From Giardia intestinalis (Eukaryota): 64,000 bases of DNA. Below, in pieces: positions 609 to 4,978 of the stretch (the stretch's first letter is position 1; each line of letters opens with the position of its first letter). A program made the translations under genes and the position numbers. The notes below the pieces were generated by a model that was given only the letters and a program-made list of their open reading frames with translations, had not been told where the DNA came from and ran no database searches. The stretch lies in NCBI GenBank assembly GCA_000002435.2, contig CM018792.1; one strand, 5' to 3'.

Positions 609-2986
609 TGGAGTATCAGCATCTGTATACTGAAGCATCCTCCCAGCAGGACAAGCCGTACACTTATCAGCGCCCTCACCCTTGCACTCTACGCACGCAT
701 CGTTGCACTTCTTGCACTTTCTGTCAGTGTCATTTCCGTAGTAGCCCTTGAGGTCGTGCAGTCAGATACGCATTGACTGGTTGGGGTGAGGTAGTACTCA
801 GACAGACACTTTGTACAGACCTCCTTATCGGCACCTTCACTGGTGCACTCCAAACAGTGCTCTGTGTTACAGTTACTGATTGGTTGGCATTCAGTCGATT
901 CAGTATTAGGTTGGAGTCCTTCGTTGCACTCGCACACTTGGCTATCCTGTCCGGTGGCCTTGGGGGTAGAGTTAGCAGGGCAACTAGCAACGCACGACTT
1001 TCTGTTGAGACCAAAGATGGTCTTCGTATCAGTCGTACACGTCTTACAAACCACTCCGTTGGCGCCTTTCTCACAAGTGGTGCAGTCAGTTGTTCCAGCC
1101 GACACACATGTATTGCACTCCTTTGCTTCTTCATCAACGTAGTGGGTTGCCGGACAACCAGCTGTGTCAACGCACGTGCCGGTTGTGGACTCGCCATCCT
1201 TCTTCAGGTACTTCTTGGTCCCAGACGTTTTACACAGGCTGCACTTCTGTTGCTCCTTGGCCACGCACACAGCGCAATTATCATCTGCACACGCGGTGCA
1301 CTTCTTCTCGGTAGCGTCGATGAAGAAGCCCTCCTCATTAGTACACGCCTCTGCGCTAACACAGCTGGGTGCATCGCCAGCTTTAAAGTAGAATCCATCA
1401 ACACACTCCCCACATATATTGTCCACCACACAGCTCTTGCAATCACCCACAGAGCATGTCACACACCCACTACCACCCTTGTTGGGCTTCTTATCACTGT
1501 CACAGGAGGTGCATGTAGCGGCAGCCATACCAGCCTCAGTCAGAGCTACTGGGGCTGTACACTGGGAGCAGCCCTCGACCCCCACGTATGCCTTAGTATC
1601 TACTAGTGTGCCTAGGGGGTTACCACATGCTAGTACAGACTGATTCTGATTGGATGCCCCTGGGACTATGAAGTACTTATTGTTGGCCGCCTCTGTGCAT
1701 ATCCCATTATTATCTGCTTTCTTGCACATGTAGTTGCCAGGTTGAGCTGATACACTATAACAGCCGTTCATATAGAGGAAGTAGTTAGCAGCACAAGAGG
1801 GACAGGTATGACTAGTGCAAGCAGTATTGCCTTTCTTATCAGTAGCACAGAGACCATCTATAGGATACTTACTGCTATCCCCACAGTATGAACAGTAGTG
1901 CTTTGTGGTGCCCTGATCATCTATTATCATGGCATCACAAGCACCAGAGGTACCCCCACAGGCAGTATCATCTTCACATACCTTTGTACATGTAACAGGA
2001 CTGGTACCACTCTGCTTGCGATAGTTCACCTTACAGTCAGTACACTTGAAAGTACTGGCCTCCATTGTGCATTGGGAGCACCCCTCGATGCCCCCATTGT
2101 TTGTGTCATCGCAGGCGAAGCATTCTCCAGGAGTGCTACTGACCTTCAGGAAGAACCCGGTCTTGCAGGTTTGGCATTTGGTCTTGTCAGCTTTTTCAGA
2201 ACATGTGGCACAGTTAGCACCACAGGCCTCACACGTGGCGGCAGGGCCATTTCCTTCTTTGATATACCCTTCGAGGCATTCTATGCATTCTGGTTTCTGA
2301 CTTTGCTGCTTAGTACATGTCTTGCAGCCGGCAATGCCTTTGTTCTTTGGTTCTGAATCCGACGCTGCGGGATCACTGCACAAACGACACACGTTGTCTT
2401 CGGTCATAAAGAGACCGTTATCAGCTCCTTGACACCCGGCGTAGTCTTTTGTCACACAGGTCGAGGTCCCATCAAGGGTCGTCCTGGGGGTCTTATTGGT
2501 CCCGCAGTTAGTGCACCTTGGCTTCCCCGTGGCATCATTATATTCACATGCGGTGCACCCAGCTATGTCGGGATCACATGCCTTGCAGGTCCAGGTCTTC
2601 TTGTCTGCGTACTTATCAGCACCACATTCAGTAGCCTCTACACAAGTGTTACCATCCTTCAGGAACTTCCCCTCAACGCAGGCGGTACACTGAGTCGGAG
2701 TATCAGCTGAGCAAGCAGAGCAGCCGTCTCCGCACTTCACACATGCACTGTCCTTCGTAACGAACCCTGCTTGACACTCTGTACACGTGGCCGGTCCGCT
2801 AGTGCCCGTGTGGGAGCATTCTGAGCATCCAGCGACTCCCATGACCCCGTTTCTATCTGTCGTATCAGAGCACAGTATGCACTCACTACCCTTCTCTGGT
2901 GTTGCAGCCGGGTTCTTGAACAGGCCGTTATCTGCCTTACAAGCAGTGCACACTCCACTACTGGCCTTTGTGCATATCACACTCCA
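609..2986 (-). pseudogene. VSP (variant-specific surface protein) pseudogene, truncated at both ends. There is no ATG or signal peptide; the frame opens right after a TAG at 2987-2989. A frameshift lies near 730-745, and the VSP-like frame (..KGYYGNDTDRKCKKCNDACVECKGEGADKCTACPAGRMLQYTDADTPE) runs directly into the first telomere repeat. There is no TM/CRGKA tail.
   Basis: CXXC repeats, a GCY motif (FLYMNGCY), and an N-terminal region closely similar to the neighbouring VSP at 3038..4906 (..ICTKASSGVCTAC.. vs ..ICTAAKDGVCTAC..). The 'M' in the ORF track is a GTG codon. I translated 601-780 on the minus strand by hand: the frame switches and reads through to 'gag tag gg' of the telomere. Confidence 0.8.
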
Positions 2987-2989
2987 CTA

Positions 2990-3013
2990 TCACACTATCA
3001 CACACTATCACCC
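2990..3013. repeat. Inter-VSP microsatellite (CACTAT/CACAC)n
   Basis: cactatcacactatcacacactatcaccc lies between the VSP2 poly(A) signal and the VSP1 ORF opening. A longer version of the same repeat sits at 4905-4959. Confidence 0.8.
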
Positions 3014-3023
3014 ATTGTACAGC

Positions 3024-3038
3024 ATTCACTACCCAAGT
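3024..3038 (-). promoter_or_regulatory. Extended VSP polyadenylation signal ACTTGGGTAGTGAAT (core AGTGAAT)
   Basis: Reverse complement of attcactacccaagt, lying immediately 3' of the CRGKA stop codon. This matches the conserved VSP 3' element ACTYAGRTAGTRAAY. Confidence 0.8.
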
Positions 3039-4906
3039 CACGCCTTCCCCCTGCACACGAACCACCAGCAGAGGAAGCCCACGAGGCCCCCCACGACAGC
3101 GACCACAGCCACGGAGATCCCCGCGATGGCCCCCGCGGAGAGCCCGCTCCTGTTGGCGCCAGAGGACACGCACCTGCCACCCTCTAGTCTGTACCCATCA
3201 CTGCACTGGCCGCACTTGTTCTCCTCGCTGCACCTGACGCACCCGTCGATATTGCAGGCGATGCACTTCGTTCCGTCTGTGTTCGGCCTCTGGTCTTTAC
3301 TGGTACAGGCCTCGCACTTATCGCCTGCTCCACAGTGCGAGCATCCGTCAACGGTACATGCGAAGCACCCGCTCCCAGCCAGGTTGGGCTTGTTGTTGTT
3401 GGTACACGCTGTACACACAGCAGCAGTCATACCAGCCTCAGTCAGAGCTGCTGGGGCCTTACACTGTGAACAGTTGAGTACCCCCACATATGCCTTAGCA
3501 GCACTATCAGTGCCTACTAGTGTGCCTAGGGGGTTACTACAAGCCAACACAGACTGATCAGTAGCCTTTGCTTCTGGGACTATGAAGTACCTATTATTCT
3601 CATTAACAGCTGTGCACTTGCCACCTTCAGCTGTCTTGCATATGTGACTACCGGGAGCCTTCGACGCATCATAGCACCCTCCCATATAGAGGAAGTAGTT
3701 AGCAGCAGTACATGATGTACAGACACCATTGGTACAACCATCATTTCCATCTTTAGTACTAGTGCACTTTCCATTGATTGGTACATCTCCTTGATTTCCA
3801 CAGTAAGAACAGTAATGCTTTGTGGTGCCATCAACATCTATTACTATGGCATCACAGGCGCCAGAGGTCCCACCACAAGCCGTGGGGTCTTCACATGTCT
3901 TCACACATGTATAGTTGTCTGAAGTTCCTTCTTTTCTGTAGTTAGGCTTACATTCAGTGCACTTGAATCCACCAGTGTTAGAGCATGCACTGCAGCCTTC
4001 GCGACCACCATCTGTTGTACTGTCGCAAGCAACACACTCACCAGTAGAGCCGGGTTGTTTCAGGAAGTACCCTGGCTTGCACTTAGTGCACTGATTATTG
4101 CCTGCAGCAGAGCATGTAGCACAGTTGGCATGACAGGCTGTGCACGTAGCGGTACCACTACCACCAGTTGCGCTATTGTAATATCCATCGAGACAGGCTG
4201 AGCAGGTTGGATTGTTACTTCCTGTCTTGGTACAGGTCTTGCAGCCAGGAACACCTGTATTACCGCTAGTCTTGTCGCTATCATCGCCACAGGGGATACA
4301 CTTCTTATTTCCTTCACTTAAAAAGTGTGTTCCTTCAACGCCATCTTGAGCGCACCCATTTGCATCGACGCACTCTGTCGTCCCATCTGCCGCCGTCTTC
4401 ACCATCTTGTTGCTACTAGTACTGCAGGTCTTACACTGTAGTTGACTAATAGTTGCATTGTACTCACAGGTGGCACAGTCAGCTATTCCACATGCCTTGC
4501 ATTGGCCTGTTGTCGGGTCTGCATAGTTACCAGCACCACATCCACTAGCCTCTACACAAGTGTTAGTATTCAGGTACTTCCCCTCAAAGCAGGCGGTACA
4601 CGATTGCTGATTACTCTCTGAGCACTCGAAGCAGCCCTCTCCGCACTTCTTACATGTATTAGAAGCGCTATCCTTAACGTACCCTGCTTGACACTCTGTA
4701 CACGTGGCCGCTCCTGCTTTCTGTGGTGCCTGACACTGTGCGCAGTTAGCCACCCCCGTATATCCATCTGCTCCTGTGGCATCATGACAGAGTATGCACT
4801 CCCCACCAGGAGTCACCCTCTCTGCCTTGTTCTGGAATATGTACTGGTTAGCTGTGTTACAAGCAGTGCACACTCCATCCTTGGCTGCTGTGCATATCTT
4901 ACTCCA
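3038..4906 (-). pseudogene. VSP gene copy with an intact C-terminus (TM helix + CRGKA). It has no ATG or signal peptide; the frame opens right after a TAG at 4907-4909 as ..WSKICTAAKDGVCTACNTANQ... It is probably a promoterless VSP cassette or pseudogene.
   Basis: The C-terminus reads ..GANRSGLSAGAIAGISVAVVAVVGGLVGFLCWWFVCRGKA*. The protein has many CXXC repeats and a GGCY motif. The first in-frame ATG is about 150 codons in; the 'M' in the ORF track is a GTG. Confidence 0.75.
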
Positions 4907-4959
4907 CTATCATACTATCATCACACTATCACACACTATCACCTATTATCACACACTAT
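4905..4959. repeat. Inter-VSP microsatellite (CACTAT/CACAC)n, longer copy
   Basis: cactatcatactatcatcacactatcacacactatcacctattatcacacactat, between the VSP3 poly(A) signal and the VSP2 ORF opening. Confidence 0.8.
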
Positions 4960-4963
4960 AGAG

Positions 4964-4978
4964 CATTCACTACCTAAG
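4964..4978 (-). promoter_or_regulatory. Extended VSP polyadenylation signal ACTTAGGTAGTGAAT
   Basis: Reverse complement of attcactacctaagt, directly after the VSP3 TGA stop. Confidence 0.8.

Follow-up and report, generated by a model that had tools for sequence, protein, structure and literature searches.

The DNA analysed here is a 64-kb stretch (64,000 nucleotides, "the window", whose positions are used throughout) at one end of the Giardia intestinalis WB C6 chromosome that measures 2,761,001 bp. Next to the telomere repeats it carries three VSP-type frames (VSP, variant-specific surface protein), all on the minus strand and with their 3' ends facing the telomere (Table 1). The first, VSP3, is an intact gene; the two downstream frames, ψVSP2 and ψVSP1, have neither an initiator ATG nor a leader and thus count as pseudogenes, not as VSP genes. 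We are largely confident that the locus is a short linear array of VSP pseudogenes (ψVSPs) at a WB C6 chromosome end, with the evolutionary origin proposed below.

An intact VSP gene followed by two truncated frames

VSP3 starts at the ATG at 6829, whose CAatgTT context is the published VSP initiator PyAatgTT (Adam et al. 2010, BMC Genomics 11:424, PMC2996952, section 6; Rodriguez-Walker et al. 2022, 10.1101/2022.03.07.483299). The gene codes for the signal peptide MFGKIIFGIAILQVVWAAA, an ectodomain rich in CXXC motifs and the conserved transmembrane segment, and it ends ...CRGKA-TGA at 4981-4979. The protein is identical to VSP AS8 (KAE8303365.1 / XP_001707366.2), and the neighbouring proteins exactly match KAE8303366 to KAE8303389. 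VSP AS8 has two paralogues that are more than 90% identical to it and have exact blocks of 320-344 residues in common with it, one on the 4.02-Mb chromosome (KAE8306113.1) and the other on its own chromosome (KAE8303502.1).

The frame of ψVSP2 opens with TGG at 4906, directly after a TAG at 4909-4907 (the stop is followed by WSKICTAAKDGVCTAC), and runs through 622 stop-free codons to the TGA at 3040-3038. Its transmembrane segment and CRGKA end are intact, which bears out the perfect tail described in an earlier reading of the locus from the sequence alone (the sequence-only reading). ψVSP1 opens in the same manner, with TGG at 2986 after a TAG at 2989-2987 (WSVICTKASSGVCTAC). ψVSP2 reaches its earliest in-frame ATG at codon 168 and ψVSP1 at codon 49, and no in-frame ATG of either frame lies in a PyAatgTT context or begins a hydrophobic leader; the start of VSP3 is the single PyAatgTT on the minus strand within 600-7100. 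In the alignment both frames begin at the equivalent of VSP3 residue ~111 and of '..GGCYKTSQ-WSEIC..' of intact WB VSPs, so that about 100 N-terminal codons are missing.

All three copies have the Cys-rich CXXC ectodomain, as judged by PF03302 matches and conserved Cys columns. The transmembrane segment, CRGKA end and extended poly(A) signal are present for VSP3 and ψVSP2 and absent for ψVSP1, where telomere repeats stand in place of the tail, and an initiator-context ATG with a signal peptide is found in VSP3 only. There are no further CRGKA ends elsewhere in the window and no Rfam match within 1-8000. ψVSP2 and ψVSP1 have no protein records, which would fit a treatment as pseudogenes in the reference, and the closest database relative of ψVSP2 is only 63% identical.

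This arrangement, at least two adjacent head-to-tail VSPs with short spacers and an initiator on the first member and none downstream, is that of the "linear arrays" which hold more than half of the WB vsp genes. In these arrays the spacers average 60 bp and range from overlap to 241 bp; the first member often has an initiator, downstream members never do, and some are without any ATG (PMC2996952). The sequence-only reading was right in describing a head-to-tail array of ATG-less downstream copies, both of which open after a TAG with no ATG, signal peptide or initiator. The spacers, 72 nt between VSP3 and ψVSP2 (junction A) and 51 nt between ψVSP2 and ψVSP1 (junction B), are somewhat longer than its 30-55 bp.

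Two features of ψVSP1 had gone unmentioned in that reading. At 752-753 there is a 1-nt frameshift, where a run of C is one nucleotide short (ACC[C]TC; the paralogue P0061 reads DCTT-LKGYY); it may be a real mutation, or else the reference may have inherited a homopolymer error from long reads. Further, the homology of ψVSP1 to P0061 ends at ~609-610: in window 1-760 the telomere repeats abut the frame in mid-coding sequence and take the place of ~226 3' codons, including the transmembrane segment and CRGKA. Because P0061 runs on for ~226 residues to CRGKA where the window has telomere repeats, the end of ψVSP1 has the look of a break at the chromosome terminus that telomere addition then healed.

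Table 1. Features of the VSP array and chromosome end (window positions)
Feature	Position	Strand	Remarks
Telomere repeats (CCCTA)n	1-609	+	period 5, ~120 copies over 1-606; TAGGG on minus strand; chromosome end
ψVSP1, 5'-truncated VSP frame	610-2986	-	Pfam PF03302 1.6e-19; blocks with P0045, P0171, P0016, P0061
Junction B, 51 nt	2987-3037	-	extended poly(A) signal and microsatellite, TAG at its end
ψVSP2, open 622-codon VSP frame	3038-4906	-	Pfam PF03302 3.6e-30
Junction A, 72 nt	4907-4978	-	extended poly(A) signal and microsatellite, TAG at its end
VSP3 (VSP AS8), intact first array member	4979-6829	-	exact protein match; Pfam PF03302 1.5e-84
VSP initiator / Kozak-like element CAatgTT at VSP3 start	6825-6831	-	sole copy on minus strand within 600-7100

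A junction of poly(A) signal and microsatellite

Both spacers, measured from the stop to the opening of the next frame, start with ACTT(A/G)GGTAGTGAATGC, the extended VSP poly(A) signal. It reads ACTTAGGTAGTGAATGC at 4979-4963 in junction A and ACTTGGGTAGTGAATGC at 3038-3022 in junction B, where it shares the A of the stop codon. Both copies match the published motif ACUUAGRUAGURAAYRY, which is described as specific to VSPs and pVSPs (10.1101/2022.03.07.483299). After the signal comes a (GTGATAG/TG)n tract, extending over ~4960-4907 in junction A and ~3013-2987 in junction B (with a period-10 repeat called at 4914-4959 and 2991-3011), and its final GATAG provides the TAG after which the next frame opens. 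The unit of the array is a 5'-truncated VSP body, a transmembrane-CRGKA tail, a stop, the extended poly(A) signal and the (GTGATAG)n microsatellite.

The two junctions are identical at 49 of 57 positions (86%) and differ by one 21-nt indel, with A the longer, so that their conservation stands while "near-identical", the wording of the sequence-only reading, is a little generous. The transmembrane/CRGKA tails are as similar as the spacers (114/132, 86%), compared with 67% in the first 120 columns of the bodies. An 18-mer, TGCAGGGGGAAGGCGTGA, is confined to the two stops (0.05 expected), GATAGTGGAGT has exact matches at the two junctions only, and all four matches of GTGATAGTGTG fall inside junctions; these counts are far above chance. 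Upstream of VSP3 there is no microsatellite.

Published cleavage sites lie 16-38 nt past the coding region (10.1101/2022.03.07.483299), and VSP3 transcripts would for this reason be cleaved within the microsatellite. VSP3 and ψVSP2, as well as ψVSP2 and ψVSP1, are in the same frame across the spacers (72 nt, 51 nt and the 21-nt indel are all multiples of 3). Since the arrays L003 and L004, described below, have no shared frame across their spacers, this is probably a coincidence. Translational read-through from VSP3 into ψVSP2 is excluded, in spite of the shared frame, by 10 in-frame stops in junction A and 7 in junction B.

The same junction is found at other VSP loci, in independent European Nucleotide Archive (ENA) assemblies: once in L003, twice in L004 and three times in L005, with 80-100% identity to the window. 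These copies have in common the poly(A) signal, the microsatellite and the continuation '..TGATATGCACA..'. As a control, a solo VSP (L002, the P0010 locus) shares the poly(A) signal with the window junctions and nothing further. The N-termini 'MLYSDSDS(DS)AMWCGGDSGGVGLLFMGGCY' of old WB proteins (P0006, P0008, P0034 and P0171) fit a translated junction read from the ATG in AGTGAATGCT; these WB junctions were obtained by back-translation from protein, not read from WB DNA. A scan of JGI metagenomes for the junction pattern gave 0 matches, and look-ups in independent assemblies with the GTG-start ORFs (open reading frames) of ψVSP2 and ψVSP1 returned no record.

A long form of the junction is present at L005:1-130, with the poly(A) signal, ~7 GGTGATAG units and MGLLFIGGCY..., and it still codes for MGLLFIGGCYKTESQPGSEIC (..GLLF(M/I)GGCYKTESQPGSEIC..). 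When the long and short forms are aligned, the window junctions equal the long form minus ~66 nt, and we take the short form in the window to be derived from the longer one by deletion. Because the junction occurs in unrelated arrays, the bodies diverged long ago and the nearest relatives of ψVSP1 lie elsewhere, the junction is best regarded as a scar inherited across the family and not as a sign of recent local duplication. In Adam et al. (PMC2996952) the word "microsatellite" does not occur, and a spacer microsatellite is not described in the available passages of Xu et al. and Rodriguez-Walker et al.; nor is the relation of long-form to short-form junctions described in the parts of this WB array literature at hand.

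Several of the loci searched have peculiarities of their own. L005 contains at 1862-2215 a 70-aa mini-ψVSP consisting of the tail only, which resembles the 224-bp "vsp14" of Adam et al. (PMC2996952). In L004, a metagenome scaffold, a ψVSP unit interrupted by a stop is repeated perfectly in tandem (2009 bp, at 90-3643); the repeat reflects either duplication in the very recent past or a loop in the assembly. The assemblage-B-like array L016 (560-2860) is built from a different unit and is therefore uninformative as a comparison for the window junction: its copies start 'VNGPAGVSIDSLCQP' and end '...AIAGISVTKSSSGLCC' before the stop, with the transmembrane segment destroyed and CRGKA gone, and the next copy retains the signal-peptide-like LLAIYLAVGALA and has lost the ATG. 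The 'VNDPAGV...' starts and 'KSSxxLCC' ends of the L016 copies are common to many database matches.

Old bodies and exact blocks in common with intact VSP genes

The bodies of the array members are more divergent than the junctions. ψVSP2 and ψVSP1 are 55% identical in amino acids, with a nonsynonymous divergence (dN) of 0.46, a saturated synonymous divergence (dS) of 1.16 and a dN/dS of 0.40, and 71 of 98 Cys columns are conserved between them; the three window copies are mutually 39-55% identical. Further comparisons of ψVSPs with each other and with intact VSPs gave dN/dS values of 0.24-0.32, and against another ψVSP ψVSP2 keeps 72 of 78 Cys columns. The sequence-only reading had taken the similar junctions as pointing to unit-wise tandem duplication. 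We rejected a recent local duplication of this kind, given the 55% identity and dS of ~1.2 of the bodies, the recurrence of the junction in unrelated arrays and the nearest relatives of ψVSP1 elsewhere in the genome. Taken together, we confirm the observation made in that reading and support its interpretation in part: it describes the anatomy correctly and errs where it would imply a recent unit-wise duplication.

At the protein level, both pseudogenes contain blocks that are exactly identical to other family members. Residues 44-185 of ψVSP1 are identical to P0016 (GL50803_114674, an intact VSP of the 1.97-Mb chromosome), residues 49-381 to VSP S7 and residues 121-381 to P0171, another array member; the C-terminal third is nearly identical to P0061. 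In ψVSP2, residues 438-499 (62 residues) are identical to P0023, which is intact and belongs to the 1.49-Mb chromosome, and residues 492-568 (77 residues) to P0020. With intact VSPs of other chromosomes, the exact blocks in common span 62-142 residues in a family that averages ~55% identity, and the edges of the blocks are internal to the genes and not at the junction. Such blocks show segmental exchange, as mosaicism without a direction.

Had the bodies evolved neutrally from a shared truncated founder onward, their frames could not still be open, and exchange with constrained genes would be required. On these grounds the ψVSP bodies must, we infer, keep exchanging sequence with constrained genes.

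Proposed origin of the array and alternative explanations

We propose that one founder 5'-truncated VSP unit, complete with tail and poly(A) signal and with a short tract rich in GT/GATA, was ancestral to all units. This founder would have been amplified by unequal crossing-over between conserved tails and junctions and then have spread among arrays, while the spacers would have been altered by slippage of the microsatellite, giving the 21-nt difference, and by microhomology deletions, giving the 66-nt loss. With no initiator, ATG or signal peptide, the ψVSP units could yield no surface protein. Their bodies would be held open and protein-like (dN/dS 0.25-0.4, dS saturated) by segmental gene conversion with functional VSPs, and the array could then act as a silent archive able to diversify the expressed repertoire. 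The donor role itself, in which the array supplies sequence to intact VSPs, we put at close to an even chance and if anything slightly below it; the exact shared blocks are consistent with it. A role of this kind was also what the sequence-only reading had favoured, in proposing silent donor cassettes rather than simple dead genes. The exact blocks with intact VSPs make the cassettes plausible, ψVSP1 is decaying, and the idea itself is already in PMC2996952.

Several points weigh against this account. The blocks do not show which way sequence moved, and the ψVSPs might have done no more than receive it; moreover, the blocks were compared at the protein level only. ψVSP1 is demonstrably decaying, through its frameshift and its truncation by the telomere. 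Antigenic switching in Giardia is held to be epigenetic or based on RNA interference (RNAi) and needs no DNA rearrangement (PMC2996952, section 16), so any donor role would belong to evolutionary and not to switching time scales. Finally, the G. muris arrays with which the locus is compared below are defined as having more than 3 ψVSPs, and the two in the window fall short of this.

The strongest rival sees in the copies nothing but relics: discarded VSP fragments in decay, devoid of any role, to which functional genes pass sequence now and then through gene conversion, if at all. The state of ψVSP1 speaks for it, as do the missing initiator, ATG and signal peptide of both copies and the contents of other arrays, with internal stops in L004 and a tiny 70-aa remnant in L005; Adam et al. 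themselves, who proposed the arrays as recombination cassettes, offered "remains of discarded vsp genes" as the alternative (PMC2996952, section 15). Against this, ψVSP2 has stayed open over 622 codons and has kept 72 of 78 Cys columns despite saturated synonymous divergence from every relative, with a dN/dS of 0.25-0.40, where a neutral copy should be riddled with stops. These data favour exchange and not specifically a donor role. We consider dead relics a real possibility, toward which we lean less than toward its opposite.

A second alternative is that the units are transcribed without being translated, with initiation at cryptic sites of the AT-richer junction, or else read-through, producing sterile sense or antisense RNAs that would feed RNAi-type VSP silencing in place of a DNA donor role. 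Giardia promoters are very short, and a spacer of 51-72 nt is by itself an insufficient argument for the "no room for a promoter" of the sequence-only reading. In RNA-seq, some WB pVSPs also appear with differential expression (PMC8700996). Neither copy has the VSP initiator, however, the extended poly(A) signal directly upstream should end VSP3 transcripts, and the ψVSP arrays of G. muris are essentially untranscribed (Xu et al. 2020, Microb Genom 6:mgen000402, PMC7641422). We judge this alternative unlikely.

Slightly less credit still is due to a stronger version of the donor role, in which the junction is a multiplication and recombination element like the trypanosome 70-bp repeats and the mini-array actively donates tracts to intact VSPs. 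The shared blocks start inside genes and not at the junction, which makes the microsatellite unlike those repeats.

An assembly artefact, that is, VSP copies collapsed or mis-joined at low-complexity junctions to give false ATG-less genes, appears very improbable. VSP arrays do break short-read assemblies: the short-read Logan contigs that carry the neighbouring gene GL50803_15034 (L006-L015) all end 570-700 nt past this gene, before VSP3 (window 7270-7400), so that the array is invisible to short-read assemblies and the exact array has no short-read confirmation. The frameshift of ψVSP1 in a C-run is likewise of a type typical of long-read errors. With three copies only 39-55% identical in amino acids, however, nothing can have been collapsed; the microsatellites are short (27-54 nt), the same junction type is present in independent assemblies, and the old Sanger-era WB protein P0172 reproduces residues 49-289 of ψVSP1 with one mismatch.

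Giardia has a few cis- and trans-spliced genes, and an upstream exon with an ATG and signal peptide might be joined at 4906 and 2986 to complete functional genes. We found no support for such a rescue and rejected it, as neither junction has a GTATGT donor or an [AC][CT]T[AG]AC branch/acceptor motif in or around it, the frame boundary is the microsatellite/VSP breakpoint of the alignment of long and short forms, and there is no Rfam match.

Comparison with known systems

In nothing essential does the window array differ from the linear arrays of WB, which are likewise head-to-tail, with ~60-bp spacers, PyAatgTT on the first member, a conserved CRGKA tail and the extended poly(A) signal. It differs in being capped by a telomere, a situation called rare in WB by Adam et al. 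(PMC2996952). Much is already known for this genome, namely the ψVSP linear arrays, their missing starts, the extended poly(A) signal and the hypothesis of a recombination reservoir; 133 VSPs and 208 ψVSPs are annotated in WB (Xu et al. 2020, Sci Data 7:38, PMC7000408), and ψVSP arrays are annotated and discussed in PMC7000408 and PMC7641422. Our additions are modest: a common junction, made of the poly(A) signal, a microsatellite and a fixed 5' breakpoint, that secondarily lost ~66 nt; bodies that diverged anciently and are yet protein-like; and an array that appears capped directly by a healed telomere. They strengthen the case that ψVSPs continue to exchange sequence with live genes, and they name candidate tracts, such as residues 44-185 of ψVSP1, which equal GL50803_114674.

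The subtelomeric silent arrays of variant surface glycoprotein (VSG) genes in Trypanosoma brucei are similar in being tandem arrays of mostly defective antigen genes with conserved 3' ends and a repeat 5' of each unit, and in forming mosaic genes through segmental conversion. Unlike T. brucei, Giardia switches VSP expression with no transfer of genes into an expression site, and an upstream repeat common to donors and the expressed gene is lacking here, VSP3 having no microsatellite upstream.

A further parallel is offered by the ψVSP arrays of G. muris (PMC7641422). There, too, tandem pseudogenes devoid of signal peptides lie at chromosome ends with their tails toward the terminus, as all tails in the window point to its telomere, and they undergo genetic exchange with intact VSPs. 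The G. muris arrays differ in having 5-23 copies, in occupying nine of ten contig ends and in their GCRGK tail, compared with two ψVSPs behind an intact VSP in the window; G. intestinalis arrays are described in the same source as having no telomeric tendency. Under the stronger version of the donor role, which we hold to be unlikely, the antigen repertoire of Giardia would be renewed from silent subtelomeric cassettes, as it is in G. muris and T. brucei.

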